NCBI GenBank assembly: GCA_963663965.2
Contig: CAXXFK010000006.1
Span: 224,001-288,000 of the forward strand
DNA from: Sedimentisphaerales bacterium
GTDB taxonomy: Bacteria; Planctomycetota; Phycisphaerae; Sedimentisphaerales; SM23-30
Direction of reading: 5' to 3'
DNA length: 64,000 nt
The notes beneath the pieces were generated by a model. The model was not told where the DNA came from, made no database searches, and saw only the letters and a program-made list of their open reading frames with translations. The translations under genes were made by a program, and so were the position numbers. Positions 19,585 to 43,800 of the stretch are shown here, in pieces (the first letter of the stretch is position 1; each line of letters begins with the position of its first letter).

Positions 19585-19603
19585 AGGTATCACCTCATTT
19601 CAT

Positions 19604-21533: not shown

Positions 21534-23143
21534 ATGTCAAAAATCTCAATCTCATAAGGAATCGATTCTAGTCTCTTGGATTGGTCATGCGGACCTCAAG
21601 GGAATGGCCGAAAAATGTTCCAATAGCATTCAGAAGGCGATTAGAAATGAGATAAATTTTAAAGATGAATGGCCAGTTTATGGTTCTGGCCCCTTACAGA
21701 CATGCATTGGTAATATTGAATTTGATAAAATTTGCCTTCTAAGTAACTATCCTAATACTATTAATCGTGCCTGTTTAAAATTACTTGGAAATAATGTCGA
21801 GATACAATCAGTAAACCTGGAAAAGGACAAATTGGTAGATTATCCTGCTATATACGATGTAGCTACTAAATTACTCGAAGAAATTAATTGCAAATATAAA
21901 TTCTGCGATTTATCAATTTTATTGAGTCCAGGTACGCCTACCATGACAGCAACATGGGTTTTATTGGGAAAAACAAAATTTCCAGCGAGGTTCTATCAAA
22001 CCTATAATGGTGAAGTCTGGGAATCGAATATTCCATTTGATCTGACTTTGGATGTACTTCCTGAGTTAATGCAAGGAAGTGACGCTCTTTTTCATCATCT
22101 TGCTTTACAGAGCCCTCAGGAAGTCCCAGGTTTTGAAGGAATTATCGGAGATAGCAAAGCCATACGACTTGCTGTTGGGAGGGCTATAAAGGCTGCCATC
22201 AGGGATGTTTCGGTATTAATAACAGGAGAAAGCGGCACCGGTAAGGAGATGTTTGCAAAGGCGATTCACGAGGCCAGTTCCCGCCGTTAAAAAACATTTT
22301 GAAGCAATCAATTGTGCGGCGTTACCCACTACATTGCTGGAATCACTGTTATTTGGGTATAAAAAGGGGGCATTTACCGGGGCGGTAAAAGATCATGTTG
22401 GATTATTGAAATCCCTGGATGGTGGAACCTTGTTTCTGGATGAAATTGGCGAAAGCGAGCCCGCTTTTCAGGCCAAGTTACTCAGGGTATTACAACCACC
22501 GTCAGGCGTAAGCTCGACAATTAGAGAATTTACTCCAGTTGGCGGTACGCATCCCGAACGAAGTGATGTTCGGATTATTGCCGCCACTAACAGGGATCTC
22601 CTCTTGGAAATTCAGAATGGAACCTTTCGAGATGATCTTTATTACCGTATTGCCCATATTTCGATTCATCTGCCTGCTCTGAGAGAGCGGAAAATCGATA
22701 TTGTGCCGATAGCTGAGGCTATGCTCAACGCCATCAACAAGGAGTTTCAAGCCCAGGATTCTTGTTTTAAGCACAAAATATTTTCTTCTAACACAAAAAT
22801 ATTTCTAAAAAACCACTCATGGAGGGGCAATGTCCGGGAATTGAACAATGTTATTCTTCAAACTGTCGTCATGTCCAATACCGACACAATCCAGCTAGAT
22901 GAAATCAAGGCAGCGATGGCTGAAATGCCTGGATCTTCCGTTTCGGATGATATTTTAAATAGACCTTTTGATGAAAATTTCAATATAAATGAATTGTTGA
23001 AAAATCTGCAAGTCCATTATATACAGAGAGCTATGAAAGAGGCTGGTAATAACAAAACAAAGGCAGCTCGAATGCTTGGATTAAATAGCTACCAGGCGCT
23101 TAATGACCAATTGGATCGTCTTAATATCAAATTAAAGAGGTGA
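21534..23143 (+). CDS. Sigma-54-dependent activator with RtcR/CARF-like N-terminal domain (frameshifts in A runs near 21540 and 22290)
   Basis: ILVSWIGHADL, LSPGTPTM, GESGTGKE, GAFTGA, LFLDEIG, FRDDLYYRI, GNVREL, Fis-type HTH NKTKAARMLG. Confidence 0.88.
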
Positions 23144-23185
23144 GTTATTTGAAAACCAGATTTTTTTTTTCGGGCTCAATATTTG

Positions 23186-23201
23186 TGGCATGGCGATTGC
23201 T
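23186..23201 (+). promoter_or_regulatory. Sigma-54 (-24/-12) promoter upstream of hsdR
   Basis: TGGCAT-GGCGA-TTGCT: GG-N10-GC spacing, close to the TGGCAC-N5-TTGCW consensus. Confidence 0.75.
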
Positions 23202-23282
23202 TTATTTTCTAGCATGGAAAAACCATTGCAACAAAATCAATCTGAAACCAGCCAATCTGGGCATCGGGAGGGCGAAGAGATC

Positions 23283-26200
23283 ATGAAATCGATCAATTTC
23301 GAGTTTCTTCGCGCCGATTGGCAACAACTGGCTTCATTGGCCGGGTTCGCGGAATATTACAGTCATCCAGATCCGGTTAGTTCCTTGATCAAGATGCGGA
23401 CTTATCTGGAGCAGATTGTCGAGCTGGTTTATGATCGTTTTGGTTTTTCCCGGCCATATAATCCAAGTCTGCATGAACTTTTGAATACTCCTGAATTTAA
23501 GCGGGTTATTCCTACCACCGTGCAGACGATTATGCACGCCATTCGGGTTAATGGCAATCGTGCCGTCCATCGTAACGAAGGTACCACGGAAAAAGCATTA
23601 CAGGCTATTAAGGATGGATTTCACCTGGCTCAATGGGTATTTCTGACCTTTACCCAGCAGGATAAATCAGTGTTGCCGGCCTATCGCCAGCCCACACCCG
23701 AAGATTTTGGCCTGACCGCCAAGGCTGAACTCAAACGCCAGAAAAAGAGCCTGCTGCAAAAACTGGAAGCCCAGGAAGCCCAGATGCAGCAGCTTCTGGA
23801 CGAACTGACCAGGGCCCGCGAACAAGCCCAGGCCGCTCAATTGTCCGAGCAGGAGATGCGGGCACAGATTCAGGCCGCCCAATATTCATGCAGCGTGCTG
23901 GACTTTTCAGAGGCCCAAACCCGAAAATACCTGATTGATGTCATGTTGGCCGATGCCGGCTGGAATGTGGGGGCCAAAGGCCAGAATACCACCGAGGTGG
24001 GGCAAGAGGTTGAAATTCCGCACCAATCCACCCCGACAGGCATTGGGTATGCCGACTATGTCCTTTATGAAGATGATGGCCACACCCCGCTGGCTGTGAT
24101 TGAAGCCAAGAAAACAGCCAAAGATGTCAACGAAGGCCGCCAGCAGGCCAAGTCTTACGCCGATGGCCTGGAACAGCAAACCGGCCACCGCCCCATGATA
24201 TTCTATACCAATGGATTTGACCTATGGCTCTGGGATGACAAACAAGGCTATGTTCCCCGTCAGATCTGGGGATTCTATTCCAAGGATAGTATCCGGTTTG
24301 TTTTGCGGCAACGGACCGCAGCACAGAATTTGCAAACAGTTAAGCTTGGCAAAGATATCATTGATCGTGATTATCAGTATGAGGCAGTAACCCAAGTTTT
24401 AGAAAACTTCCAGAACCGCCGGCGCAAGGCATTGATCGTTCAGGCGACCGGAACCGGTAAAACACGGGTGGCCATCGCTCTCAGCGAGGCGTTGGTTCGG
24501 GCCGGCTGGGTCAAGCGGATATTATTCCTGTGCGATCGGCGCGAACTGAGAAAGCAGGCCAAAGACACTTTTACCCGCTTTTTGCCTAATGAGCCGGTAG
24601 TTTATATTAGTGCCTCGACCAGCCTGCAAACCCATCACAAGGTCTATCTGGCCACCTATCCGGCCATGATGAAGTGCTATACCAATTTCGATCCGGGTTT
24701 TTTCGACCTGATCATTGCCGATGAATCCCATCGCAGTATTTACAACCGCTACCGGGACCTGTTTTTCTGGTATGACTCCTTGCAAGTGGGCTTAACTGCC
24801 ACACCAGTCAGTATGATTCAAAGGAATACTTATGATCTGTTCGAGTGTCCGGCAGATAATCCCACGGCCCATTACGATTTTGAAAAGGCCGTTACTGACG
24901 GGTATCTATGCCCCTTTGAAGTCAAAACCTTCACCACGCCATTTTTACGCGAGGGAATCAAATATTCCCAGATGACTAAAGAACAGCGTGAGCAGTTGGA
25001 AGCCCAGGAAACGGTCCCACAGGATATTGAATTTGAACAGGGTATGGTGGATAAGTATATTTTCAATCGGGACACCAACAAGCTGATCCTGAAAAATCTG
25101 ATGGACAACGGCATTCGTATCAAAGACGGCAGCCAGATCGGCAAGACCATTATCTTTGCCCGCAGCCACAATCATGCCATTCTGCTGCAAAAGCTGTTTG
25201 ATGAGATGTATCCCCAATATGGCGGCAATTTCTGCCGGGTCATCGACAATTACGATCCCCGCGCCAGCGAACTGATCGACGATTTCAAGGGCATCGGCCG
25301 CAATCATGATCTGACCATCGCCATATCGGTTGACATGCTCGACACCGGCATCGATGTCCCGGAAATAGTCAACCTGGTCTTTGCCAAGCCGGTCTATTCC
25401 TATGTCAAATTCTGGCAGATGATCGGCCGCGGCACCCGGTTATGCGAAAAACCTTTTCGGCCCCGGCCAACATAAACAGGTTTTTCGTATTTTTGACCAT
25501 TGGGGTGTGTTCGAGTTTTTTGACGAGCAATACCAGGCCGCCGATGACTCCCGTACCGCTAAGAGTCTCCAGCAGTTGGTATTCGAAGATCGTCTCAAAC
25601 TGGCCCAGACTGCCCTGGATCTGCAAAAACAGGATGCCTTCGACCTGGCCACCCGCCTGATACTGGAGGATATCAAGAGCCTGGACGAAAACCAGTCCAT
25701 CGATATCCGCGGCAAATGGCGCGATATCAAGCTGCTGCAGAAAGACGGCGTCATCCGGCAATTTGCCCCGGCCACCCGTGCCCTGCTCAATAACGATATC
25801 GCCCCGCTGATGAAATGGCGCAATATCACCGGCTACCAGGAGGCTTACCTGTTCGACCGGCTGTGCTGTCAGCTCCAGCACGAACTTGTGACCGGTGGAT
25901 CCCAATTTAACGACCTCAAAGACGATCTGCTCAATCAGGTACATGAACTGCCCATCAATTTGAACGCGGTCCGCGCCAAAATCGCCACGATCAACCAGGT
26001 GAATTCCGGCGCGTTCTGGACCCAGCCGACAGTTGAATCAATCGAGACGGTTCGCGTCGAACTGCGCGGCGTTATGAAGTATCGGCAAAATGAAACCGGC
26101 TCTGGTCAGCGATTCCAGCCCAAGGTCATCGATATCGCCGAAGAAGATGATTTAATCGAGAGCAAAGACTACCAGCCCAAAATCAAGGGCCTGCAGCTGA

Positions 26201-26685
26201 TCGAATACCGTCACCGGGTCCAGGCGGTGTTAGAGGCCCTGATGGAAAGCTCGCCGGCCCTGCAAAAAATCCGGCTCGGCGAGCCTGTTAGCGAAACCGA
26301 ACTCAAGGAACTGGCCGCGCTGGTGGTGGCCCAGGAGCCCGACCTCAAACTGGAAGACCTGGCTGACTATTTTCCGCAGGCCGGCTCGATCGAAGCAGTC
26401 ATCCGCGGCATTGTCGGCCTGGACGCCGACCAGGTGGGCCGACGGTTCAGTGAATTCATCAAGACCCATACGCTGAATTCCACCCAGTTGCGGTTTCTCG
26501 ACCTGCTCAAAACCTTTATCGCCCGGCATGGCAAAATCGAGGTCAGCGATCTCTACGAAGATCCCTTTACCTCACTCAATCCCGATGGAATCGATGGTGT
26601 GTTCGATGACAGCCTGGCCGATGAACTGATTATATTGATTCAGGAATACCAATCTGATACTGATGATAATGCGGAGGTTTCGTGA
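23283..26685 (+). CDS. hsdR: Type I restriction subunit R with N-terminal DUF4145-like domain (frameshifts near 25450-25500)
   Basis: YADY...IEAKK nuclease, QATGTGKT, DESHRS, LTATP, DMLDTGIDVP, QMIGRGTR, EcoEI-R-like C-terminus. Confidence 0.92.
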
Positions 26686-27449
26686 TGAGCAGACCAGATT
26701 ATAATGAATGGCGATTGAGCGACCATTTTAAAAATGTATTTGAGAATCGCAAAGATGAGAGATTCTATGTCGATGAAAATATCCAAAAAGCGGCCAAGTT
26801 TCAGGCGAAGGCTATAATTGATGGGGCTACTGATTTAGTGGCTGATAATTCTGTTTCACAAGCCTTTCATATCCTTGATTATCTACAAGAAGATTCAGGG
26901 GAAGATGCTAAAAAGAATGAAATCAAGTGGTATGTTTATGAGATTATTGATGAGCTATTGGGGCACGAAGTAGTTGAAATGCAAGTTCGGGCCGAAAAAC
27001 GGATTCTTAAGCTGGTTGCTTTGATGGAAAAACAGGGAGTTGATGCAGAAATCAGGCATTTTCTTAATGAAGCAACAAAATGTTATCTTTATGGTTTTGA
27101 TATCCAGTGTATCATTATGTGTCGTTCCGTTTTAGATGCCTACTTTGAACAATTGATACCCGATAATACCTGTCGTGATAATAAGGCATGTATTGATGAT
27201 AAAGAAAAATACTATGTATTAGCGGATCGAATTAAAGTGGCAGAGTACATTGGCATGATTAGTCAAGGTCTCGACACTGAGTTTCTCAGAAAGATAAAAG
27301 ACGCTGCTAACAAGCAGATTCACCCGAGCCGATGGGATAAGAAATCTAATGGGTGCAGTCGCATTCATGTTACCGAAGAGTTTGTGTGGGATATATTGGT
27401 AAGAACGGTCTTGGTTATCAAAAACATAAAGGAGCATGCCCATGGCTAA
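26682..27449 (+). CDS. DUF4145/HEPN-like protein
   Basis: EATKCYLYG...MCRSVLD...IKDAANKQIHP. Confidence 0.6.
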   Translation: MMSRPDYNEWRLSDHFKNVFENRKDERFYVDENIQKAAKFQAKAIIDGATDLVADNSVSQAFHILDYLQEDSGEDAKKNEIKWYVYEIIDELLGHEVVEMQVRAEKRILKLVALMEKQGVDAEIRHFLNEATKCYLYGFDIQCIIMCRSVLDAYFEQLIPDNTCRDNKACIDDKEKYYVLADRIKVAEYIGMISQGLDTEFLRKIKDAANKQIHPSRWDKKSNGCSRIHVTEEFVWDILVRTVLVIKNIKEHAHG

Positions 27450-27657
27450 AATTGTACAAGGCGCCACTTTTGTCAGCAAAGGCACTGAATATATATTGGA
27501 CTATGGCCCCAAAGGTAACTTGCGGCCTTACACTGGAGGGCCGGTAAAGAAGGCCATGAAAACCCGCAATCCCTATATCATTGGCGGGGCTGTTGTTTTG
27601 GCTGTTGTAGTTGGGATCGGAGTCTGGTATTGCAACAAGCGAAAACATAACAATTAA
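27442..27657 (+). CDS. Small single-pass membrane protein
   Basis: AAGGAG RBS; hydrophobic segment IIGGAVVLAVVVGIGVWY. Confidence 0.55.
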   Translation: MAKIVQGATFVSKGTEYILDYGPKGNLRPYTGGPVKKAMKTRNPYIIGGAVVLAVVVGIGVWYCNKRKHNN

Positions 27658-27691
27658 AAAAATTGATAATCTATAAAATGAAAGGTAATTC

Positions 27692-29248
27692 ATGATAACC
27701 GGCGCTTTAAAGGGCAAAATTGACAAACTCTGGGAAGAATTCTGGACCGGGGGCATTACCAATCCGCTGACGGTGATCGAGCAGATATCTTTTCTCATGT
27801 TCGCCCGCAACCTGGACCAGCTCGAGAGCATCAACGAGCGTAAGGCCCGGCGGACCGGCGGCAAGGGTATCAAACGGGTCTTTGACGGGCCGGATGATAA
27901 ACGGCGCTGGAAGAACCTGATGCAGATATCCGAGACCGACGCGCTACTTCGTACGGTGCGGGATGAGGTATTTCCCCATTTCAGGGAGATCGGCGGCGAG
28001 GAGACCACCTTCAGCGAGTATATGGCCGACGCCCAACTGATGATCCAGAAACCGTCACTGCTCTACAAGGCCATGAAAATGGTGGATGAGCTGCCGCTGG
28101 TGCATTCCGATGCCAAGGGCGACCTCTACGAATACCTGCTCAGCAAGCTGACCACCGCCGGCATCAACGGCCAGTTCCGCACGCCCCGGCATATCATCGA
28201 CATGATGGTTGAGCTGCTCGACCCCAAATCCACCCATACCATCGCCGATCCGGCCTGCGGCACGGGCGGTTTTCTGGTACAGGCCTACGAATACCTCCGC
28301 AAAAAATACACCTCGCCCGAAGGCCGGATTGAAAACCCGGAGGATCCTTCCGGCGAGCCCATCTATTCAGCCGACCTGCTCAGCGCCGAGGAGCGGGCCC
28401 ATATCCATAACGATATGTTCTTCGGCTTCGATTTTGATGTGACCATGCTGCGGATCGCCTCGATGAACCTGATCCTGCACGGCCTGGACAACCCCAATAT
28501 CCACTATTGCGATACCCTCTCAGGAAAGATGACCGAGCTGTTTCCCAAGCTGGCGGTCAATAAGTTTGACCTGATCCTGGCCAATCCCCCCTTTAAAGGT
28601 TCGCTCGACGCCGAAGATGTGGCGCCGTCGCTCGCCGGCAAGGTCAAAACCAAAAAAACCGAGCTGCTGTTCCTGGCGCTCATGATCCGCATGCTCAAAC
28701 TGGGCGGCCGCTGCGCGGTGATTGTGCCCGATGGCGTACTGTTCGGCTCTTCCAACGCCCACCGCGATCTGCGCAAGATGCTGGTCGAGAACAACCAGCT
28801 CGAGGCCGTGATTTCGCTGCCGTCCGGCGTATTCAAACCCTACGCCGGTGTCTCCACGGCCGTACTGGTCTTTGCCAAAGGTGATGAAAAAGCCGAAGGC
28901 CAGACCGAGCGGGTGTTTTTCTTCGATGTGCAGGCGGATGGATTCAGTCTGGATGATAAACGAACCTCGATCGGTGACAATGATCTGCCGGAGGTGGTTA
29001 AACAGTGGAAAAAGTGGAATCATGGCGACAAGAAAGCGCTGAAGCATTTTACCGACCGGACTCAGAAGGCCTTTTTTGTGATCCGTGAGGAGATTGTTCA
29101 GCAAGGATATGACCTGTCCATTGGCCGGTATAAAGAGCATGTCTACGAAGAAGTGCAATACGATCCTCCGAAGGTTATTTTAAAGCGGTTGAAAAAGTTG
29201 GAAGAGGATATTGTTGCCGACCTCAAGGAATTGGAGGCGATGATTTAA
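27692..29248 (+). CDS. hsdM: Type I R-M methyltransferase subunit M
   Basis: [33 protein letters not shown]. Confidence 0.95.
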
Positions 29249-30294
29249 TGAATCAATTCAATCCCCAATTTACCATAACCAACGCCATGACCGACGCCCT
29301 GACCCGGATCGAGCGGGCGCGGGGCTTCCTCGAAGCCGCCACGCTTTCAGAAGATTGGATCGCCCGGATGAGCCGGCGGGCGCTGCTGCTCGAAGCGCAT
29401 CATACCACGCACATCGAAGGCACACAGTTGACGCTGGAGCAGGCGCAGAAACTCTGGGATGGCGAAACGATCGACACCGTCGATGCGGACGACCGGAGGG
29501 AATTGCTGAACTATCGCAACGCGTTCAATCTGGTGGCGGAGTATCTCACCGGGGGCGCTCCCATTACCGAGGCTCTGATCCGCGAAATTCACCATCGGCT
29601 GGTCGAAGGCGTCCGCGGCGGCAAAGGCCAGCCGGGCCGCTATCGCACCATCCAGAATTATGTCGTCAACAGCCAGACCGGCCAGGTGGTTTACACGCCC
29701 CCGGCCCCGGGCGATGTTCCAGGAATGATGCGGCAACTGGTCGAATGGCTGGCCGCCGACAGCGAAATCCACCCGGTTTTGGTTTCGGGGATCGCGCAGT
29801 TTCAACTGGTTCATATCCACCCGTTTGTCGATGGCAACGGTAGAACCTCGCGGCTGCTTTCGACCCTGTGCCTCTATCGCAGCGGTTTCGACTTCAAAAG
29901 GCTGTTCACCATCAGCGAATATTATGACCGCAACCGCGGGGAATTTTATCAGGCGTTACAGCAGGTGCGCGAACGGGACATGGACCTGACTATCTGGCTG
30001 GACTATTTCCTCACCGGCCTGGCCACCCAACTGGAAGAAACCAAACATATCGGAAAAACCGCGATCGAAATAGACATCATCGCCCACGAACATAACCTAA
30101 ACCCACGGCAAAAACAGGCGCTGGAATATCTGATTATCCGTGGCTCCCTGACCATTGCCGTCTATCAGGAACTCTGTCCCGATGCCAATCGCCGGACACT
30201 GCAGAGAGACCTTAAAGCCCTTATTGCCATAGACTTAGTGTCAACCAGCGGCGCGACCAACAACCTGACTTACACCTTGAAAGGCCGGGATTAA
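29248..30294 (+). CDS. Fic family protein with C-terminal HTH
   Basis: [12 protein letters not shown]ic motif; [11 protein letters not shown]. Confidence 0.93.
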
Positions 30295-30297
30295 TGA

Positions 30298-30353
30298 ACT
30301 TGCGACATACTTGCGACATGACTCGCGACAACTTGCGACACAAACTTGCGACA
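30298..30353 (+). repeat. Five near-tandem copies of ACTTGCGACA
   Basis: Copies at 30298, 30309, 30321 (ACTCGCGACA), 30331 and 30344. Confidence 0.85.
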
Positions 30354-30388
30354 TGGCCCACCGGCAGAAACGAACTGGGGGTGAGGAT

Positions 30389-31618
30389 ATGATGAAAATG
30401 TCGTATAATATCAAACTGGGTGATGTATCAAAATTTATTAGAGGAATTACATTTAAACCAGAAGACAAAGTGGCGTTAGGTTCAGATGATGCAGTTGTTT
30501 GCATGAGAACCAAAAATGTACAAGCTGAACTAGATGAAACAGATTTGATAGCCGTACCTTCAGTATTTGTAAGACGAAAAGAGCAGTATCTGAAAGATGG
30601 TGATATTCTAATCTCGACTGCAAATAGTTGGGAATTAGTAGGCAAATGTTCATGGATTGAAAATTTGAAATTCAAATCCACCGCAGGTGGATTTATCTCC
30701 ATCCTTCGAGGTAACCAAAACAAAATCAACTCTCGCTATTTGTATCACTGGTTGGCTTCTCCTCCAATACAGCATGCTTTGCGACACTGTGGAAGGCAGA
30801 CAACTAATATTTCAAATTTGTCTTTCGAACAAGCAAATTCGATTATAATCCCCATCCCTTACGCCGACAACCCGGAAAAGAGCTTAGCCGAGCAGCGGCG
30901 CATCGCCGCGATCCTGGACCAGGCCGACGCCATCCGAAAAAAACGACAACAGGCCATCAACGAACTCAACAACCTCATCCCCGCTATCTTTGCTAAGTGT
31001 TTCGGGAAATATATTGATGATAAGTCATGCTATGTTGATCTGGCAAATGTCTCGGAGATTGTTTCAGGAGTAACAAAAGGTAGGAAATTTAATGGCAAAA
31101 AAACCATTATATTACCCTATTTAAGAGTCGCAAATGTTCAAGATGGGTATCTGGAACTTTCTGAAATAAAAGAGATTGAAGCGTTGCCGGAAGACTTGGA
31201 AAAATACCGTCTAGAATATGGGGATATACTCCTGACGGAAGGTGGCGATTTTGACAAATTAGGGCGTGGCACAATGTGGGAAGGACAAATTGAAAATTGC
31301 ATTCATCAAAACCATGTGTTTCGAGTCAGGGTGAACCATGAAATATTATTACCAGAGTATTTTGATAGTTTTCTACAGACGCAAGCTGCCAAGTATTATT
31401 TTCTACGATGTGCAAAAAAAACATCAAATTTGGCTAGCATCAATATGACTCAACTACGAAAACTGCCGATTCCAATTCCTGATATGAATATTCAAAAGAA
31501 ATATGCAGATTCCTATCACAAGCACAATGAAATGTCAAAATTTTTGGGACGCACTTATCTTGAAACAGATGCACTATTTATGAGTTTGGTTCAACAAGTA
31601 TTTAAGGGGAATCTATGA
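30389..31618 (+). CDS. hsdS: Type I R-M specificity subunit S
   Basis: Two TRDs joined by LAEQRRIAAILDQADAIRKKRQQA; GDILIS and GDILLTEGG motifs. Confidence 0.93.
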   Translation: MMKMSYNIKLGDVSKFIRGITFKPEDKVALGSDDAVVCMRTKNVQAELDETDLIAVPSVFVRRKEQYLKDGDILISTANSWELVGKCSWIENLKFKSTAGGFISILRGNQNKINSRYLYHWLASPPIQHALRHCGRQTTNISNLSFEQANSIIIPIPYADNPEKSLAEQRRIAAILDQADAIRKKRQQAINELNNLIPAIFAKCFGKYIDDKSCYVDLANVSEIVSGVTKGRKFNGKKTIILPYLRVANVQDGYLELSEIKEIEALPEDLEKYRLEYGDILLTEGGDFDKLGRGTMWEGQIENCIHQNHVFRVRVNHEILLPEYFDSFLQTQAAKYYFLRCAKKTSNLASINMTQLRKLPIPIPDMNIQKKYADSYHKHNEMSKFLGRTYLETDALFMSLVQQVFKGNL

Positions 31619-32238
31619 CAATTGATGGCAAAGAAACATTGTATCTTACATTGGCTTTTGTAGTACCTGGCTTTATTTGGCATTACATTTTAACCTTATT
31701 TCAGCCAAGTAAGACACCCAATAATCAGATGTTATTACTTCGGTTTCTGGCGCTTAGTTGTTTTAATTATGCCATATGGTCATGGCTTGTGTTCAAGTTG
31801 ATAAACACCTCCTATGCCAGGGATAATCGGTCAGAGCTTGCATGGTTATGGACCGTAATTATTTTTATTAGTCCTGCTGGTTTAGGGTTATTAACAGGCT
31901 GTCTAAACCAAATAGGATTTGTAAGAATTGCTTTCAATAAGATGGGATTGATTGCCATGCATTCAATCCCGACTGCATGGGATTATAAGTTCTTTCATAC
32001 GCAAACCTGCGTATGGGTACAAATCCACTTGAAAAATGGCAAAATGATTGCCGGGCTATATGGCTCAGAGTCTTTTGCCTCCTCTGATCCTGAAGAACGC
32101 GATCTTTACCTCCAGAAGGCGGTTAGGATTGATAATGATGGAAATTGGGTGAAACTTGATCGAAGTGATGGTGTATTAATAAAAGGTGATATGATTGAAT
32201 ACATTGAGTTTATTAGAGATAAACAAGGAAACTTATGA
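31615..32238 (+). CDS. DUF6338-like membrane protein
   Basis: FVVPGF N-terminal TMs, PTAWDYKF, SFASSDPEERDLYL. Confidence 0.7.
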   Translation: MTIDGKETLYLTLAFVVPGFIWHYILTLFQPSKTPNNQMLLLRFLALSCFNYAIWSWLVFKLINTSYARDNRSELAWLWTVIIFISPAGLGLLTGCLNQIGFVRIAFNKMGLIAMHSIPTAWDYKFFHTQTCVWVQIHLKNGKMIAGLYGSESFASSDPEERDLYLQKAVRIDNDGNWVKLDRSDGVLIKGDMIEYIEFIRDKQGNL

Positions 32239-32399
32239 TGGCAAAAGACCCAAAACAATCGTCAGCGGAAAATAGAGGTTATCAACCAACTGGCAGAGAA
32301 ATTAAGCCTGGAACAACATCCGGGTATCAACCCCCTAAAAAAGAGGGACCTGAAGGCGGGAATCCTCCAAAAAAAGAAGATACGATTGAAGGAAAATAG
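32235..32399 (+). CDS. 54-aa disordered peptide with repeated GYQP (not in ORF track)
   Basis: ATGA overlap with the upstream stop; RGYQPTG...SGYQPPKK...NPPKK. Confidence 0.55.
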   Translation: MMAKDPKQSSAENRGYQPTGREIKPGTTSGYQPPKKEGPEGGNPPKKEDTIEGK

Positions 32400-32502
32400 T
32401 TCTCATTCAATAGATAAAAATTGGGAATATTGAACAGGGATCAAGCCAAAATAGTATTCAAAAAGCGTTTTGATAAATAACATAATTAAAAAGAGGTGAC
32501 TT

Positions 32503-33972
32503 ATGGAATCGACCATTAAGTGTCCGAATTGTGCGTATCAGATTGAGATAACCGAGGTGATGTCGGCGCAGCTGGCGGAGAAGATGCGGGCCGAGGTAAC
32601 CGAGGAGATGGCCCCGCTGCGTAAGAAGTTGGAGCAGGCCCAGGGCGAGCTGGCCCGGCGCGAGGCGAAACTGGCGGATACCGAAAAGGCGGTGACCGAG
32701 CAGGTACAGGCCCGGCTGGCCGAGCAGGAGAAGAAACTGCTGGCCCGTGCCCGGCAGCAGGCGGTGGATGAGCTGACGGTGGATCTCAAAGACCGGGATG
32801 AGCAGATCAAAGAGATGCAGTTGAAACTGTCGGCGGCCAATAATAAGGAGGTGGACCTGCGCAAGCGGGAACGGGAACTGACCGACCAGCAGGAGCAGAT
32901 GAAAGCCGAGCGAGAGCAGGTGGAAGAGGCCGGCCGTCGAGCCGCCCAGGCTGAAAGGGACCGGATTACGGCCGAGGCCACGCAGAAGGCCCGGGAACAA
33001 CTGGCAGGCGACCTGGCCGCTCAGCGTGAGTCGATGGCCGCTATGGAAGAGCAGCTCAAGGCCGCGCGCCAGGCCGAAAAGGAGCTTTTGCAGCGCGAGA
33101 TGAAGCTGAAAGATCGCGAAGAGGCGGTCGGGCTGGAAACCCAGCGCCAGGTCAGCGCCCTGCGGGACCAGCTGGTGGCCGATACCCGCAAGCAGGCGGC
33201 GGAGGAATATGGCCTGAAAGAGGCAGAACATAACAAGCGGCTGGCCGATTTGAAGGCCCAGCTGGACGATGCCCGCCGCAAGGCCGATCAGGGCTCTCAG
33301 CAGATGCAGGGCGAGGTGATGGAACTGGCCTTGCAGCAGCTGCTGACGGAGAGCTTTCCGGCTGATTCGATCGAAGAGGTGCCCAAGGGCGTCCGGGGCG
33401 GCGATGTGGTCCAGCGGGTGCGGACCGGGGGCGGGCTCGATTGCGGTACGATCTTGTGGGAGTCCAAACGGACGAAAAACTGGTCCAGCCAGTGGCCGGC
33501 CAAACTGCGCGAAGACCAACGCAACGCCAAGGCCGAACTGGCTATTCTGGTCAGCGAGGTTCTGCCCGACGGGGTGGAATATTATCAGCAGCAGGAAGGG
33601 ATCTGGGTGTGCAGCTGGTCCATGGCCGTTTACCTGGCGGCCGCGCTGCGCAACGGGCTGCTCGAAACCGCCAAGGCCCGCCATGCGCTGGAAGGCCGGC
33701 AGACCAAAATGGAACAGGTGTATAGCTACTTGGCCGGCGCCGAGTTCAAGAACCGGGTGGGGGGCTTTATCGAGCCGATTGTCGGCATGAAGACCCAGCT
33801 CGACCAGGAAAAACGCGCCCTGACCAAACACTGGGCCAGCCGCGAAAAAATGCTCGACCAGGCCATCACCGGTATCGCCGGCATGTACGGCGATTTCCAG
33901 GGCATCATCGGCGGCACCCTGCCCCAGATCGAGGCCATGGAGCTGTTGAGGCTGGATGGGGAAACTGTATAA
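32503..33972 (+). CDS. DUF2130-family coiled-coil protein
   Basis: IKCPNC, GSQQMQGEVMEL, VPKGVRGGD, ILWESKRTKNW. Confidence 0.88.
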   Translation: MESTIKCPNCAYQIEITEVMSAQLAEKMRAEVTEEMAPLRKKLEQAQGELARREAKLADTEKAVTEQVQARLAEQEKKLLARARQQAVDELTVDLKDRDEQIKEMQLKLSAANNKEVDLRKRERELTDQQEQMKAEREQVEEAGRRAAQAERDRITAEATQKAREQLAGDLAAQRESMAAMEEQLKAARQAEKELLQREMKLKDREEAVGLETQRQVSALRDQLVADTRKQAAEEYGLKEAEHNKRLADLKAQLDDARRKADQGSQQMQGEVMELALQQLLTESFPADSIEEVPKGVRGGDVVQRVRTGGGLDCGTILWESKRTKNWSSQWPAKLREDQRNAKAELAILVSEVLPDGVEYYQQQEGIWVCSWSMAVYLAAALRNGLLETAKARHALEGRQTKMEQVYSYLAGAEFKNRVGGFIEPIVGMKTQLDQEKRALTKHWASREKMLDQAITGIAGMYGDFQGIIGGTLPQIEAMELLRLDGETV

Positions 33973-33989
33973 AAACAGAAAGGTGAGTT

Positions 33990-35689
33990 ATGTTAACCAG
34001 AATCGAAATCGAAAACTTTAAAGGCATTGGCGACCTGATATCGGTGCCGATCAAACCCATAACACTGCTTTTCGGCGCCAACAGCGCCGCAAAAGCACGA
34101 TTATGCATGCGTTGCATTATGTGAGCGAGATACTCGAACGGCAGAATGTCGATGTTGGCAGAACGGCCCGGGGCGGCAACAGCATTGATCTGGGTGGATT
34201 TGCCGAACTGGTTCATAAAAAAGACCTCAATCGGACTATATCCATTCGGTTGGAGTTTGAGTTAGAAGATGAGTCTCTGAAAGATTATTTGTCAGACGAT
34301 AAGTATGTCAATACATTTGAGATTCGTTTTGAAGAAGATAGTGCTCCTTTGGGGGATACTGATTATCAGTTTACTCCGGTTCAATCGTTTTGGGTTGAAT
34401 TAGAGGTCGGTTTTAGCCATTTTATAAAACAACCGAATGTGACAAGATATTCAACAGGTATTAATGGAAAACGGTTGGCAACATTGCACTACAAGCCGGG
34501 TAGTTTTTATGCCGATATCGAAAGTATCAATGAAGAACATGAGGTATTCAGGGTAGACAGTGCGCCTTTTGGTAATCCCGGAGGTGGAATCTCTGTGAAT
34601 ATTGCCACCAGCGCTTATGCCCGATGCGGATCACAAGCACCTTCGTCAAAATTATCCAATGCCCCGTTGCAGTTCAAAACCAATGCGATTCATGGCGCAT
34701 TGCCCCGATTGAATGAAATTCTTGAGTTCCCAGGTTTAGTGCCGGATCCTTCCATGTATGAATCAGGGACGATAATTCCTCGCATGACGAAAAAAGACCA
34801 GGATGAATATGAGGGACAGGATGCCTATGTCGCCGGTAAGGTGTTGATGAGGTTGCTGACTCAATACCTAGTGGCGCCGGCGGAATATGCCCGGGATTTT
34901 CTGAAAGGGATACGATATGTTGGCCCCTTACGAACGGTTCCGCCAGCCAACTATTATAAGCCAAGAGTGATTGAAGAATCTCGCTGGGCTGATGGTATGG
35001 CAGTTTGGGATTTACTTGGGACAGCTGGTAAAGAGGCGTTTTCATATGAGTTAAGTGAGTGGTTGAGCCGCGAGGATCGACTTAATACTGGTTATGAGAT
35101 GATTGTTACTTCTGTTCGGGAAATCGATCAAAAAACTCAGGACTGGATGATGCGTACTGAATGGGAACAGGAGGATTCTAGTGTTGAGAAGGAAGCGATA
35201 GTCGATTTAGACCGCATACCAGTCAGGAAAAAGGTTCAGCTTTACGACATGCCTAGAGATACCTATGTTTGTCCCAATGCGGTGGGGATTGGCATATCGC
35301 AGGTGATTCCGGTAATCGGTGCAATTGTGGCTGATGGCGCCTCATTGGTTCAAGTTGAACAGCCGGAATTGCATCTGCACCCAACCCAGCAGGCCGCACT
35401 GGGCGATTTACTGATCGCGGGTGTCAGGCAACATAATAAATTGTTGTTCATTGAAACCCATAGCGAGCATTTGATTCTGAGACTTCTTCGCCGAATTCGG
35501 GAAACTTCTAAGGAAATGGTTCCTGATGCCATGTTAAGTCTGTCTCCTGAGGATGTGGCGGTTTTATATCTTCAATCTAAAAACGGCCAAACCAGAATAA
35601 GAGTTATCGATGTTGATAATAATGGCGATTTTGTTCAGCCCTGGCCGGATGACTTTTTTGATCAGGATTTTCATGAGAGGTTTGCCTGA
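33990..35689 (+). CDS. ABC-type (AAA_15/21-like) ATPase with DUF3696-like C-terminus (frameshift in Walker A near 34089)
   Basis: IEIENFKGI, FGANSA[G]KST, GIGISQVIP, EQPELHLHP, IETHSEH, WPDDFFDQ. Confidence 0.85.
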
Positions 35690-36660
35690 TGTATACTGAA
35701 ATTGCGTTTACACCACATATATTTGATGAAGATTGCAATACTGACAATGAAAAGTGGTACTTGGGAATATATAATTTGGGCCAAGGATTATTACCTAAAA
35801 CGGCTGCAGAGCCAATCATTTTGTCAGATATTTATGGCGGTAGTTGTTTGAATGAGGCAGTTGCAAATATAAGCAGAATTAAAGACCACCGAGTTAGAGT
35901 CTTAGCGCAATCCTGTGCGCAAAAAATGAGTAAGTTATCTGTTATAAGGCCCTCAGAAAGCGATTGGCCACAAAGTGAGCAGGATTGGTTAGGCGAATGT
36001 GAAAATTCATTTGTTAACTTTCCAATGGGAAGGGTGTTGATTAGTAATTCTCATCACCAACATATTATTACCCAGATGCCAGCATTTTCTATTTATGATC
36101 CGGCGGATGACCAGAGCGGATTCTGGAATGATATTCAAAGCCAGGGCAGGGTGAATATGAACCTTGATGATCAGGTGAACCTTTTGAGGCCAATCTGTGT
36201 TCATGCAGACTATATTGCTATTAAATCACCACAGATTAGGGGGGGCAGCGACGATGAAACGGTATTTGCGGCCAGAATCATTCAATCTGCCCTTAATAGG
36301 CCAACCAATTATCCAGAAATCAAAGTGATCGAGTTTCATCTGGATGATCAACACAATTCGAATCATGATAACTCTGTAATTAACATAATCCAACTAGTGC
36401 GGCGAATTACTGCTAAATCCAATACAGGTCTGAAAATTAACTTCTATTTCTGGCCCCATTACACGGATCGGGAGCTGGTGGCTGGTCTATTAAAAAATGG
36501 CATTAAAAGCCCCCGTTGGGGTATCAGTATGAATCACATTGCCAGACCGGCCGACACCAGTGGATCTACGACATGGAATATAATTGCCCAGAAGAATTTA
36601 GATGATATTGCGAATACGAGTGATACCCAGATATTTGATATGAAGGAAGATAATCTTTAA
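35689..36660 (+). CDS. Hypothetical protein coupled to the ATPase
   Basis: 323-aa ORF with TGATG overlap; no family recognised. Confidence 0.7.
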   Translation: MYTEIAFTPHIFDEDCNTDNEKWYLGIYNLGQGLLPKTAAEPIILSDIYGGSCLNEAVANISRIKDHRVRVLAQSCAQKMSKLSVIRPSESDWPQSEQDWLGECENSFVNFPMGRVLISNSHHQHIITQMPAFSIYDPADDQSGFWNDIQSQGRVNMNLDDQVNLLRPICVHADYIAIKSPQIRGGSDDETVFAARIIQSALNRPTNYPEIKVIEFHLDDQHNSNHDNSVINIIQLVRRITAKSNTGLKINFYFWPHYTDRELVAGLLKNGIKSPRWGISMNHIARPADTSGSTTWNIIAQKNLDDIANTSDTQIFDMKEDNL

Positions 36661-36742: not shown

Positions 36743-39700
36743 ATGGCGACTTATAGTGAGTGGAATAGTTGGTTAACTGATTACTTCTTTAATTGTAACA
36801 AATCAAATAAAGAGGTCTTTCTTGCTGTTTGTCCAGAAGTGATAAATGAGATCGGACAAATTAACAATATTAAATCACCGGATGATGATTTTATTAATGC
36901 TATACGAAATTGTGATTTGCGGAAACCTCTACACAGCAATATGATACAAACTGCTGATGATTTACGCTCAGAACATAAAAATACATCCTATTCTGGTGAT
37001 CCCAAGTATGTCGCCTTTTTATCCTTCTTGGTATATTGCATATCCATATCGCCTAATCTAACTGGTAAGAATCAAATCCCTGATTTAGAAAAGAAACTTA
37101 ATGAGTCTGGTTTAAGAGAATTTTATAATGATCGAGTTCCAGGTATATGGGGAGCGCTGGAAAAGTGGACCCGGATTAATCAATTTGAAAAAGGAAGGTT
37201 TAATGCAATACATATTCCGCATTATAAGAACGTTGGCTACGCTTTTAGGCAGGCCTTATTTAGGAAAAGTGATCACAAATTAATTGAGGATGCGCTAGCT
37301 AAATCGAAAGTGTCAGCAGGTCTCGAATTGGATAAGATTCAAGCACGAAAAATATTAGCCAACCTACCAAGTGGAACCCGGCTAGCACAATTATTTCAAA
37401 AAAGTACTGATACCGAAATTAAAGAATATTTAATTCAAAGAGTTTTCGATGTATATAATACTCCCCAAAAACTGGACAAAAAAACGGTGATTTTTAGATG
37501 GAATTGCCGCCTGAACCGATTGAATAATTCGTATTCAGGAGACAGTTTTAATGAAAGGCAAACGGCGAAATCACAGTGCCCAGTTTAAGGCGAAAGTGGC
37601 CCTGGCCGCCCTGAAGGGCGACAAGACGCTGGCGGAGTTGGCCAAGGTTTACCAGGTACACCCGACTCAGGTTACCCAGTGGAAAAAGGAGCTTTTGAAT
37701 GCCTTGCCGGAGATCTTTTCTCTGAGGCGCCACCAGGATCAGCGCGAGCAGCAGGCTTTGGTGGATCAGTTATATCAGCAGATCGGCCAACTCACGATGG
37801 AGTTGGACTGGCTTAAAAAAAAATCCGGGCTTGACACTTGAGCAGAAGCGCCTGGCGATAGAGCCGGGCCATCCCCGGATTCCGATCGATCGTCAGTGTG
37901 AACTGCTGGGCCTGGCCCGCAGTAGTTACTATTATCGTCCCTGCCGGGACACGGAGTACCATGAGAGTCTGATGCGGCTATTGGATGAACAATACCTCAA
38001 AACCCCTTGTTACGGGGTTGACAAGATGACGCAGTGGCTGCGTCGTCAAGGCCACATCGTCAATCCGAAGCGCGTGCGCCGTTTGCTCCGGCTGATGGGC
38101 TTAGAAGCGATTTATCCGCGCGTTAAGCGGCATTTGAGCCAACCGGACCCGGCCCACAAGATTTATCCCTACCTGCTTGATGGGGTGGTGGTTACCCGGC
38201 CGAACCAGGTCTGGTCGACCGATATTACCTATATCCGCATGTCTCAGGGCTGGGTGTACTTAACGGCGGTCATGGATTGGTTCAGCCGTTATGTGTTAAG
38301 CTGGGAAGTTTCGATCACGCTGGAGGCCGATTTTTGCGTATCGGCGTTGGAGCAGGCGCTGGGCCAGGGCACCCCGGAGATCTTCAATACGGATCAGGGC
38401 AGCCAATTTACATCAGTGGATTTTATCCGGCCCTTGAAAGATGCCGGGATTTTAATCAGCATGGATGGCCGGGGCCGGGTATTTGACAACATATTTGTCG
38501 AACGGTTATGGCGTTCGGTCAAGGTGGAGGAGGTCTATCTGCGAGATTACCAGACGGTGGCCGAGGCGGTGTTAGGCCTGGGCCGCTATTTTGAGTTTTA
38601 CAATCATGAACGGCTGCACGAGGCCCTGGGATACCTTACCCCGGCCGAGGTGTTCGCCGGGGCTGTCGCCCCTCCAGTCGCCCTCCGGGCTCCTTCCGGG
38701 GCGACAGCCCCCACCGTGGCGATAACTCCATCTAAGAAAGTCAATATTTTTGTCTAGACAATGGGGAGGGGTACAGTATACAATAAATGGGATGGGTCTG
38801 TCGGCGATAATTCAAGCAAATCGACATATCAACTTACACTTGTTCTGCGAGTTAACGATTTTGATGAAAATGTGATGTTTCGAGCAAAAATACGCAATCC
38901 TGAAAATATTGGATTAGAAAACTTTGGTACGTTTAATTTTAAAAACAATTATAGCATATCATATTATGATGAGTATTGGTCAGAACAGTTATTGGATGGA
39001 GAATATGCTTATAATGCGATCGAGCTACTTACGACAAAAATTGAATTAACGAGCGAAGAAAATGGAGTTATAGTCCAGTCTGCAGATTATAATACACCAA
39101 TCATTTTCGATAATGGCGAGCATTATGGTGCAATGGGCTATTGGGTAGAAACTAATAATCCAAAATCAGATGAATTTTTAATTTTATCGAGAGATGAATT
39201 ATTGGGAGACGCATTTCAATTGCTTTCTTATGATGGTGTGCCAAAAGACTGGAATCTATTCATAATTAATTATAATAATTATCTGCATGGCTCAGATGAT
39301 CCATTAGGCATTAAGGATAAGGTAACGTTTAAAGAAATTAATAAAAAAGTGACAATTGATGGTTTCCATTTTAATGGAAAATATTTTAGGTTTTTACCCC
39401 CAAGAATAAAAGTAGCTCCAGATGTAAGTGAAATATTCTGTAATGATATTAAAATATTCATTGATGAAAAAACAGGAAATTATGATATATCAAACCATAT
39501 AACAGACGATGTTTATGTGATCAATATAAAAGCATTATGTGGTAATGAATTTGAGGAACATAAAATCGAGTTTGTAAAATCTTTATTAAATGAAATCACA
39601 AATGATCATTCTTTAGATGCATCTGGCCAAGCATCTAAGGTGAGCAACGGTATCTTTGGTGCAAACCTGACAGATAAGGATTATCAACCGCCTGGTTATC

Positions 39701-40809
39701 CTAAACCTAAAAATAAAATATTATACAACAAAGCATTTACAGTTGAATCAAAGGTACATATTCCTAAAATTCCCAATACTATACCTACCTTGAATACCGA
39801 CATTTTGCAAATAGTTAGACAGAGAAAGGGGAATAGGATTACTGATAGAGAGTTACGATCTTCGATTAAGGAATTAATTTATTATAAATGCGGTGTAGTC
39901 GAACCTGATCCCACCAATTTCATAATTAGTGTGTTAGTAGATCTTGGGAACCTGGAGTATTCCAATAATTATTATTACCTAACTTCAACGTCTTTTATTC
40001 AGAAGATTTCAAAAAGCAATGAAGCTTTTCTAACCGGCTGGCGAGATGAATCACTGTTGCACAATATTATAGATCAATCCCAAAGATGTAAAGATGTTAG
40101 TATAGTATTTGATAATAATTATACGCTTAATAATGATTATGTATTAAAAAACAATTGGATGAATCTATTACCTACTCCGATTAATCTGATCGCCAAAGAT
40201 GAGGATATTTTATATCGATTTCTGAAAGAATTTCAATATTCCAATAATTCTAATTCATGGAGTATTCTAAATTGGTCACATGACAAAAAAACAGTATTAA
40301 ACAATATTCAGGATGGATGGACAATCAGAAATCTAGGTAATACGGCCAAGTATCAGTCCTTTAATTTTAAAACGTTGGGGTGGGAAAATGGTCGGTCAAA
40401 GGAGGACTGTCTCTACGGCCTGTATCGAGAAAAACGCTTTGATGGTGAACATTATTTTCTAGTGAAAGATGAGTATATCAACCGAATCAATCTCGATTGG
40501 GGTATGAATATTTATTTAAGTGAGCTCAAATATTTCAGTTTATTTTATGATGAATTCAAAAAAGTATTGTTATGCCCATATAAATGCAAATTACCACTTC
40601 TGGTAAGCCGAGGGCTTGCTCTTTGCAGTGGATTAGTACAAGAACTTCATGGTAATTATTTAGAAACTGGCAATAGCTATTTGGGGCGATTTCGAAGTAT
40701 CCGTGAAATAGGATGGCATAATAAGTGGTTTATTGCCTATCGATCAGTACCGTGGCCAATCGCTCAGAAAGTCGCAGAAATGTCAGGAAGACAAATGGAT
40801 AAGATTTAA
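36743..40809 (+). pseudogene. DruH-like protein (Druantia type III) split by IS3
   Basis: Removing 37454-38778 fuses VFDV to YNKWDG in frame (~913 aa). N-terminus Y..WN..L..YFF....VFL; directly precedes a DUF1998 helicase. Confidence 0.65.
37454..38775 (+). mobile_element. IS3 family element, 1322 bp, with 3-bp target duplication GTA
   Basis: OrfA 37551-37841 and OrfB 37831-38757 (WSTDITY, DQGSQF, ERLWRSVK), A-run slippery site near 37815, imperfect 26-bp TIRs, GTA at 37451-37453 and 38776-38778. Confidence 0.95.
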
Positions 40810-43800
40810 TGGAGATAGTTATGCAATCGGACCCAATAACAAATGCAGAGAAGATAAAAGAGAGTATCATCAGGTATGTCAATACGACTTTTAATGTTAG
40901 ATACAAATCATTTGTCGAGGAACGAGAGCGTTTACTTAAAAAGGAAGGAACTATTGGTAAGATACCATGGTTTGAATTAATTCCTCAATATAAAACCAGT
41001 AAAAAAATTGATGATATAACGAATGATGATGTCAAAATGGATCCTCAAGTAATTGATCGATTTAAAGAATTCGTAAAATGTGGATTAATTGGTGATTATC
41101 CATTGTACATGCACCAATTAGAAACACTTCAAAAAGCATCTAAGGGGCAAAATGTTATTATCACTGCCGGAACCGGTTCGGGTAAAACGGAATCATTTCT
41201 TTTACCGATTTTCTCTCAACTTATTGAAGAGTCAATAAATTGGCAATCTCCATCTAGAACGGCATTTCATCAATGGTGGCGGAATGATTCTGGTGAGCGT
41301 ATTAACCAGAGACATTATGAACATCGCCCGAGTGCAATAAGAGCATTAATCATATATCCCATGAATGCACTCGTTGAAGATCAGATGGCTCGATTGAGAA
41401 AAGCAGTTTGTTCAAATAAAGCCGAGCAGTGGTTCTCTAAACATTTAAATGGAAACAGATTTTATATTGCTAGATATAACAGTAATACTCCAGTATCAGG
41501 ATATCCTAATGAAAAAACAAAACAAAAAGAATTAAAAAGACAACTAAGAGATCTAGAGAAAAATTTGGAGCAAGCAAGAATATATGATCATACCTATAAC
41601 AAAGGAGCACAGTATTATTTTCCACAAATTGACAGAGCTGAAATGTGCAGTCGTTGGGACGTTCAAGAGTGCCCACCGGATATTCTAATTACGAATTCAA
41701 GCATGCTCAGCGTAATGATGATGCGGGAGATAGAAGACGATATATTTGAAAAAACTAAAAAATGGCTTGAGGAATATGATAATGCTATTTTTAATCTTGT
41801 AATCGATGAATTACATCTTTATCGAGGTACGGCAGGAACAGAAGTATCATATTTAATTAGACTATTATTATATCGTTTGGGTTTAACTCCGGATAGCCCA
41901 AAATTGAGAATTTTGGCTTCAAGCGCATCAATTGAACCAGATAGTGATAGCATCAAATATTTGGATGAATTTTTTGGATCAAAATGGAATCCAGAAAATA
42001 TTGTTTCGGGTAGCTATGAAAATCAACGCGTGCTTTTCGCTAAAAAGTTAGATGTATATCAGTTGGCTGGCCTTAGACAAAATGAAATACCAAAAGATGC
42101 TACACATTGGGATGCTGACTTTTTCCGACAAGCATTATATAGCGGTTTTCAAGGTAAGACTGCTATCAGTGCGTTAGAATTCAGTCGAAATATTTTTGGA
42201 GAGCATGATGATCACATGCTTATTAATGGTTTGAAAGCTTTCTTAAGATTGCGAATGAAACTAAGAGATTCCAGGATTCCTTCTATCAGAGTTCACTATC
42301 TCTTCAGAAATATTGAGGGTATTTGGGGGACAGCCAAACCCGCAGGTATCGATAAGTGTACGGTGGGAATGATATCCCTAAGAAAAACACCCTATATTAA
42401 GCAGAATGGTGAATATTTACGAGCTTTTGAATTATTATATTGTGAATATTGTGGCAGTTTGTTTTTCGGTGGAATGCGTTGCGGTAACGATCATGAGTTT
42501 GATATGTTACCTGATAATTACGATTTAGAAAAAGCACCTTGGAAACCAATTGAAACTTATACTGGTAGCAAGAGTTATGAAGATTATGCTGTTTTCTGGC
42601 CAATGGAGAATGCTGTTAAAAATTTTTCAGTAAAAGGCAAAAAAGTGGAGGGGGGTTGGAGAAAGGCTTTATTAGATCCATATCTAGGGCGTGTTATGCC
42701 AAGTGATGAGGTTGAAGAACGCGAAAGAAGAGAGAAATTGATTAACGGTTATGTCTATGTGGCTAAAAATTCAGATCTTCATAACAAAGCAATGCCGCAA
42801 ACATGTCCATTTTGTGGGATTTATAAAGCAAAAGCCAGGCCAATCAGAGCATTCAATGCTGGTTTTAGTCATATGGCGAAAAATTTAATTCGTGAGTTAT
42901 TCTATTTGTTAGAAGAAAGAAAGCTAATTGTATTTTCAGATAGTAGAGAGGCCGCAGCTAGTATAGCAAATGGAGTGGAAAGATGGCATTATATAGATTT
43001 AATGAGAGAGATACTTATCCAAATTGCTGCCGAATCAGAAAGGAATCGACCAGAAAAGATAAAAGTATTAGAGGACGAATTAATTTATTATCAGAATGAG
43101 ATTAATAAAACACAAGTTCCTGAAAGCCAAAAAAAAGAATATCTCAATAAAATTCCTTTGTGGCAGGAAAAAATCGAAAGACTTAAAAATGAGAATGTGA
43201 TGTGGTTTGATGAGGCGGTATTATCGATCGAGAATTCCGATTTAGTTAAGAAGTTTATGGATATAGGAGCAAATCCTGCCGGCAGCGATATACAATATCA
43301 AAAATTTAATAATGAAAATCAAAAATGGAATATTATCTTAGATAAAATAATAAAAAAATCATTAAAATCTGAACATGATATGAGTGAATTCAAATATCGC
43401 TATATACCAAAGATTAAAGAAGAAATATCAACAACATTATACGGAAGAACGTTTTGGGGATTTGAGCCTTTTGGGATTGGTTATCTTGTACCTCACGAAC
43501 TAAATAGTATTAATCCATACAACATAGCAGAACAAGATTATCGTGAAATTATTTATAGTTGTATTCGAATTTTAGGTATTAACCATTATTATGAGACTAT
43601 TAGTAATGAGTTGTGGTGCAATTTCAATATCGGAGAAGGAAATGAAATCAATAACTATTTGAAATCAGTGGCTCAAAAATATCTAATAACCGATAAAGCG
43701 GGATTCGAAGATCACATTAAACGACATTTTGTGATTAGCGGATCACGCTTAGGGCTAAAACTGGAGAGGTATGGTCTGAGACTTATTGATGCTTCTTCGC

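Follow-up and report, generated by a model that had tools for sequence, protein, structure and literature searches.

What switches on the type I restriction-modification (R-M) operon that directly follows a gene for a sigma-54 activator with a CARF sensor domain? The question is raised by a stretch of 64,000 nucleotides from a Sedimentisphaerales bacterium (assembly GCA_963663965.2, contig CAXXFK010000006.1, positions 224,001 to 288,000), called the window here, in which this gene immediately precedes hsdR. We identified a sigma-54 promoter between the two genes and a tandem palindrome inside the activator gene itself. Judging from homologous loci, the activator likely binds this intragenic repeat and, on sensing its ligand, would open the promoter and switch on hsdR, hsdM, hsdS and the genes that follow; we assign this reading a probability of about 0.7. 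The elements concerned are as follows.

21534..23143, + strand: sigma-54 activator of the RtcR_PspF2 / PspF-like family with CARF, AAA+ and helix-turn-helix (HTH) domains, 535 aa when the extra bases at 21539 and 22287 are discounted
21562..22125, + strand: CARF sensor domain, with the strand-1 motif W-x-G-x-x-D at 21574-21594 and an invariant LSPGTP at 21922-21939
22367..22384, + strand: intact GAFTGA loop for sigma-54 contact
22773..22806, unstranded: tandem 14-bp palindromes of the ACAAW-N4-WTTGT type, 20 bp apart, inside the activator coding sequence (CDS); candidate enhancer (upstream activating sequence, UAS)
23186..23201, + strand: sigma-54 -24/-12 promoter, with a predicted +1 near 23212
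23214..23216, + strand: ATG in the hsdR frame at about +3; predicted near-leaderless start

The sigma-54 promoter, the intragenic repeat and the start of hsdR

A preliminary description of the locus had placed a correctly spaced -24/-12 box about 80 bp before hsdR. This is borne out: the box TGGCATGGCGATTGCT at 23186-23201 has the GG-N10-GC spacing and lies 82 bp 5' of the conserved hsdR Met codon at 23283. The host encodes rpoN (contig C11), so the objection that the factor might be absent falls; among five named genomes tested, the host RpoN is closest to the Phycisphaerae record (47%). Conservation of the box upstream of homologous hsdR genes, put forward as a check in the same description, was examined in two sets of loci. 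Set 1 comprises 79 GTDB loci, mostly from Planctomycetota, of which 63 were complete enough for box scoring. Set 2 was assembled via a Pseudomonas-led profile and comprises 80 metagenome and 5 viral loci (69 scorable, 54 after dereplication at 90%). In a sample of 401 genomes, 40 were matched by a profile and 21 by a single-protein query.

The box occurs within -20 to +220 of the activator stop codon in 53 of the 63 scorable loci of set 1. Controls gave 4/61 in same-strand upstream sequence, 2/63 inside the CDS, 5/63 on the opposite strand and 3.2% of 3150 shuffles. Set 2 behaves alike, with a box in 49/54 loci, none on the opposite strand (0/54) and one internally (1/54). Among named proteobacterial plasmid loci, three of five pass the same rule and the other two have weaker matches. 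Genes of the hsd type lie downstream in 39 of the 53 set-1 loci with a box, versus one of the 10 without. The box is more than chance; a scan for sigma-70 promoters stayed at chance level (8 vs 7.3). A divergent box 60-330 nt 5' of the activator start is present in 30/79 loci (5 in the same-strand control), and a box stands on at least one side of the activator in 58 of 61 loci. PADLOC was applied to 40 of the 53 genes behind divergent boxes; seven were matched at 1e-8 (BrxA of BREX, two caspase-like proteins, a JAB protein, a helicase and two kinases) and 33 were unmatched.

The repeat lies 380 bp upstream of the box. No synonymous constraint was found in the last 70 activator codons, the place for an enhancer at the usual distance. 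The strongest conservation of four-fold sites in both sets is instead located about 125-155 alignment columns before the activator end, at the repeat, which holds the top 4 of 182 four-fold columns in set 1 (Kullback-Leibler divergence 0.77-1.74 vs a median of 0.08) and the top 2 of 171 in set 2. In loci with a nearby box, the mean repeat score is 19.35 of 20 in set 1 (48 loci), compared to 16.04 after synonymous recoding, and 16.87 compared to 14.64 in set 2 (45 loci); 0 of 1000 recodings reach the observed value in either set. The 20 loci with a distant box or none average 12-14.8. Box state was also placed on a quick tree (holding 59 of 81 rows, after exclusion of loci that were incomplete or frameshifted, among them the window). 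The near-box state changes eight times, with at least four changes forced by strong branches, and nested losers of the box mostly have decayed repeats (e.g., 13, 13 and 14 beside sisters with 20, 19 and 20).

The same motif was found de novo in non-coding DNA just 5' of the activator start codon in about 74% of 78 sequences, and a repeat scoring at least 17 is present there in 35/77 loci versus 1/77 controls. We trained an independent motif model solely on these non-coding copies. In 42 of 48 CDSs with a near box, versus 1 of 11 others, the site pair that this model ranks best is the intragenic repeat, and the model favours the 20-bp spacing. The repeat form and the HTH helices both differ between two protein clades; the outer half-sites covary between these clades only, with no covariation within them. 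The intragenic repeat is likely an enhancer and the predicted site of activator binding. A tandem palindrome of this type inside the activator CDS was not found in the literature searched.

Downstream of the box, ATG codons concentrate 27-29 nt from its first T, which corresponds to +2 to +4 in the usual numbering. In loci with hsdR as first gene, 19/30 of set 1 (plus three with GTG) and 31/35 of set 2 have an in-frame ATG at index 26-31, and no out-of-frame ATG occurs at these positions. Loci with other first genes have such an ATG in 3/23 and 0/14 cases, and no comparable peak is seen at the 65 box-like sites in the host genome. The window hsdR has a second ATG at 23283, preceded by a GGAGG ribosome site of the Shine-Dalgarno (SD) type.

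In Pseudomonas-like leaderless loci (L148-L215), an inverted repeat with compensatory changes surrounds the -12 element (box bases 5-27). Its pairing exceeds that of all 2000 partner swaps, a comparison in which the loci are kin and not independent. The inverted repeat could form a hairpin in read-through RNA just 5' of the ATG; it is absent from the window and from set 1. In L223, the -12 GC is gone after the activator stop codon, and a purine-rich stretch resembling a ribosome site precedes the same N-terminal HsdR extension, which suggests a switch from leaderless to led translation.

Five IMG/VR viral contigs (L142-L146) carry the activator, with a downstream box in three of the four representatives scored. 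On Polaromonas and Rhodoferax plasmids (L107, L111), the activator heads VWA-PP2C-kinase-helicase trains in place of hsdR.

The activator and its family

The list of open reading frames (ORFs) of the window contains the activator as two pieces, 21604-22290 and 22253-23143. The ATG at 21534 is out of frame with the N-terminal domain, and the frame is broken at 21539 and 22287. Short-read contigs from three public runs were aligned to window positions 21000-40900, and one (run X1) spans 21281-23170 with 0 substitutions and single-base deletions at 21323, 21539 and 22287. Because this contig is without both extra bases, we consider the gene intact and the breaks to be assembly insertions; real pseudogenisation of the activator was ruled out on the same evidence. 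The intact GAFTGA motif claimed earlier was seen, and Walker A (22225-22248), Walker B (22433) and a Fis-type HTH (near 23051) are intact too. The preliminary description was correct as to domains and motifs and overlooked the two ORF breaks, as well as one in hsdR.

By its sequence, the activator belongs to the RtcR_PspF2 / PspF-like family of CARF-AAA+-HTH proteins and is not RtcR. The PADLOC model RtcR_PspF2 is the best for both pieces (E 2e-49 and 9e-99), with 167 and 330 bits versus 44 and 147 for PspF1 and 16 and 148 for RtcR. We obtained an AlphaFold model of the N-terminal piece from 120 sequences (predicted local distance difference test score 89). Every Foldseek match listed for it is a CARF protein, and so are the top 22 VIA matches, the best being Csm6 of E. 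italicus (Z 15.7, root-mean-square deviation 2.1, 138 aligned). A PDB sequence search with the CARF profile gave no match below E 0.35. Of the RtcR/CARF-like N-terminal domain proposed earlier, the CARF assignment holds through the RtcR_PspF2, Foldseek and VIA results, and RtcR proper was rejected: model NF038308 gave 38.6 and 249.4 bits for the two pieces versus a cut-off of 650. The RtcR N-terminal domain PF06956 has no match anywhere in the host genome, and only weak matches in 6 of 17 homologues. The activator adjoins R-M genes rather than rtc genes. There is no rtcBA operon beside it, and the host rtcB is on another contig, without RtcR.

The proposed switch, its alternatives and its trigger

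Enhancer-to-promoter looping is the standard mechanism of sigma-54 activators. In the resting state, the activator would sit on the repeat at 22773-22806 within its own gene, with its CARF domain repressing until ligand binds, as in RtcR. Ligand would free the AAA+ ring, which, with the HTH on the repeat, may loop across about 400 bp to the sigma-54 polymerase at 23186-23201. The message would start at about 23212, almost at the hsdR start codon, and HsdR synthesis would be coupled to it because such a message is near-leaderless. The copy of the repeat 5' of the start codon in many relatives may be an autoregulatory operator that also serves divergent sigma-54 promoters. A broader proposal is that the activator gene is its own enhancer, and that the 1.7-kb cassette of CARF domain, repeat, promoter and near-leaderless start is a plug-in switch for nucleic-acid damage signals. 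The restriction subunit would then come almost only from the induced message, and flanking defence genes would inherit the control. We offer this tentatively, at somewhat below even odds.

A second island in the same assembly (G000:C2:60038-76629; L024, L025) counts in favour of control through the intragenic repeat. Its box is identical to that of the window and its hsdR is intact (85-91% identical), though the activators, intact at this locus, are only 57-62% identical. Several points weigh against such control. Neither the window nor this paralog has any divergent box or a 5' copy of the repeat, and the loci are kin, so the counts exaggerate their independence. The set-1 group without a box still scores slightly above recoded controls (2/1000), and two loci without a near box retain a strong repeat (L087 with 19, L026 with 17). 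In L026 the box is shifted to +173, and a similar palindrome pair is present in intergenic DNA there. The window repeat scores 20/20, the best in the genome, a value that is partly circular because the pattern was made by hand after inspection of the data. The independent model ranks the window site 107 and that of the paralog 6 of 7.24 million positions. The same model recovers 4 of 45 set-2 (Pseudomonas-like) sites, where the repeat differs. The support for an intact activator consists of one contig of depth 3, possibly from the source sample. Finally, translation in the window need not depend on the leaderless start, because of the SD-led ATG at 23283.

Could the promoter merely boost an operon that is mostly expressed by read-through from the activator promoter and from internal promoters, leaving restriction ungated? 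Steady methylation is needed by the host. No terminator-like site was called between activator and hsdR, the window hsdR has its SD-led inner ATG, and internal promoters are expected in the parts of Bell 2024 (PMC11090510) that treat such operons. However, box, repeat and +3 ATG are all under selection and are lost together, and in set 2 an SD sequence at the inner ATG is found in 0/31 leaderless-type loci; we regard ungated expression as unlikely. We give rather less credence to the idea that a host protein, either a DNA-bending one or a global regulator, binds the repeat, or that the repeat serves as an internal promoter element. Typical enhancers are closer to their promoters than the roughly 400 bp seen here, the repeat is AT-rich, and a hexamer that looks like a -10 box, TACAAT, overlaps with its 5' copy. 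Yet the repeat is missing at the homologous position in the seven other sigma-54 activators detected in the host genome (11-17/20), and its form differs between the clades with differing HTH helices. Its CAA-to-TTG spacing is 6, whereas that of the consensus for integration host factor (IHF) is 4, and no IHF consensus is present between repeat and box. It is also very improbable that the island is a dead relic, with real frameshifts and a dead switch. The distal genes are indeed broken, by an ATPase frameshift confirmed by a short-read contig and by two insertion sequences (IS) of the IS3 type, and for the hsdR break an assembly error is only probable. However, both activator breaks are missing from the otherwise identical short-read contig, each of the three breaks in activator and hsdR consists of one surplus base within or next to a homopolymer run, and HsdR, HsdM and Fic retain their catalytic motifs.

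For the activator as a switch bound to its own gene, the most likely ligand is broken RNA ends with a 2',3'-cyclic phosphate from infection or damage. We propose this with less than even confidence, and the transfer from RtcR is by analogy only, because the activator is not RtcR itself. It is possible, though doubtful, that the wiring is right and the signal is a cyclic oligoadenylate, another second messenger or a protein partner. Among solved structures, the nearest folds are those of CARF domains that bind cA6 or cA4 (Csm6 among them), and by an inferred alignment Thr114 of Csm6 is the likely counterpart of the invariant LSPGTP Thr. The CARF domain of RtcR binds RtcA and RtcB proteins too, according to portions of Hughes 2020 (PMC7790460) and Kotta-Loizou 2022 (PMC9650030). 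On the other side, the fold matches listed include no RtcR structure, so the closeness to Csm6 cannot be ranked against RtcR, and no cyclase gene accompanies the activator in the loci read. A signal made by Cas10 is disfavoured: of 21 Planctomycetota genomes that encode the activator (88-100% complete), 13 give no match to the Cas10 palm and 6 pass the cut-off, and the host offers no convincing one, its match being marginal and failing TIGR02577.

A sigma-54-inducible restriction island, as first proposed for this locus, is well supported by rpoN, the CARF domain and the conserved box. The distal run included in that proposal is partly dead. The idea itself is not new but a published prediction (PMC4012209, PMC11090510). 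Passages in Makarova 2014 (PMC4012209) link a PspF-like CARF-AAA+-HTH family to R-M and predict sigma-54 activation of downstream R-M genes, the predicted trigger being 2',3'-cyclic-phosphate RNA or phage nucleotides. The window agrees with this family (PADLOC PDLC01995 RtcR_PspF2) in domain order, in the lack of rtc genes nearby and in having hsdR directly downstream. One example in those passages, from Polaromonas CJ2, comes from the same organism as plasmid hit H1 of this analysis, and the Desulfobacterium hsdR given there has the Pfam architecture seen here. The promoter, the binding site and the start-codon geometry are added here and do not appear in the passages concerned. The sections of Bell 2024 (PMC11090510) on RtcR-like genes describe them as heading superoperons with Type I R-M first and with Druantia and CoCoNuT; Type I R-M right after the CARF gene and long co-oriented defence trains are common to these and to the window. 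HTH binding to a UAS is predicted in these sections, but no UAS is named, and the word "leaderless" is not in the main text. McrBC/CoCoNuT genes, which belong to the train of the RtcR-CoCoNuT superoperon, were not detected in what is present of the window island, whose distal end an IS interrupts.

RtcR of E. coli and Salmonella is repressed by its CARF domain, and ligand drives its oligomerisation (relevant parts of Hughes 2020, PMC7790460; Kotta-Loizou 2022, PMC9650030). Binding of 5' tRNA halves that carry a terminal 2',3'-cyclic phosphate has been shown only for RtcR of Salmonella (same sources). Like RtcR, the window protein is a CARF-controlled sigma-54 activator; unlike RtcR, it fails the RtcR models and is in tandem with its predicted targets, which are restriction genes and not rtcBA. 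Csm6 of type III-A CRISPR, its closest solved fold (cf. structural sections of Garcia-Doval 2020, PMC7101355), differs in that the activator has no HEPN nuclease, no cas genes nearby and no steady co-occurrence with Cas10. A paper on a P. aeruginosa island mentions a gene of this type, in a table only. We found no experimental test of R-M-linked CARF activators in the literature searched, which was mostly non-subscription; Makarova 2020, on CARF classification, and the supplements of Bell 2024 may bear on novelty.

The added value of the present analysis is a cis-regulatory map, above all the intragenic repeat. The 2014 prediction that CARF sensors switch restriction on via sigma-54 gains testable cis parts (a promoter, a candidate site and a predicted start codon), and the candidate site comes with a natural loss-of-function series. 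If the proposed switch operates, many Planctomycetota and proteobacteria would have inducible type I restriction, a lack of activity in clones of such islands might reflect the missing trigger, and the activator gene would be a portable on-switch for anti-phage genes.

The restriction island and its surroundings

The island genes downstream of the activator are the following.

23214..26685, + strand: hsdR, for a PRK11448-like type I restriction subunit; in the window its frame is interrupted near 25447, probably through an assembly error
26682..27657, + strand: uncharacterised 255-aa ORF, and 73-aa ORF with a hydrophobic stretch at the C-terminus; the paralogous island has neither
27692..29248, + strand: hsdM, with an NPPF motif at 28583
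29248..30294, + strand: SoFic-type Fic protein
30311..31618, + strand: hsdS, with 31% identity to that of the paralog
31615..33972, + strand: DUF6338 membrane protein, 54-aa ORF and DUF2130 coiled-coil protein
33990..36660, + strand: AAA/DUF3696 ATPase with a -1 frameshift in the Walker A region (about 34083), and a 323-aa partner
36743..46244, + strand: Druantia-like pair, DruF-like and DruE, both hit by IS3 copies

Between 21534 and 46244, every gene of the island lies on the + strand. The long co-oriented defence run reported earlier is confirmed as to orientation, and the genes of its distal part (the ATPase and the Druantia-like pair) carry real lesions. That of the ATPase is a true frameshift, since the window sequence is reproduced exactly by a short-read contig that spans 33870-37483. 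The DruF-like gene is split by an IS3 copy at 37454-38775 with a 3-bp target duplication, and the C-terminus of DruE is cut by a second copy (about 46040). The core genes hsdR, hsdM and hsdS are all present. Compared with the intact paralog, hsdR is broken at about 25447 by one additional base within an A-run; among the identical contigs listed, none spans this position.

In the paralogous island, hsdM and Fic are 94% identical to those of the window, and hsdS is different; a different specificity is likely because of the low identity given above. Cross-activation of the promoters of both islands is possible. The assembly has 5.4% contamination, and the paralogous island could come from a related organism.

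DUF2130 coiled-coil genes recur early behind sigma-54 boxes that flank the activator, upstream and on the - strand in L026, L091, L101, L143 and L207, and downstream in L095. A second box-like match in the window, at 32037-32052 inside the DUF6338 gene and about 450 bp before the DUF2130 gene, is probably due to chance.

The surroundings of the window island are mobile in character, with integrases, a HerA/TraG-like ATPase, ArdC-N, IS elements and a group II intron-like reverse transcriptase (RT). An ArdC N-terminal (anti-restriction-like) gene (18976-19593, - strand) and a ThiF/JAB prokaryotic ubiquitin-like module (15983-18293, - strand) are located 2-5 kb upstream of the restriction island, in the same mobile-looking element. 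A group II intron-like RT together with an IS256-family element (window 47777-49366; G000:C2:56728-58317) flanks both islands. Since these copies are >99% identical, the two islands share recent mobile elements.

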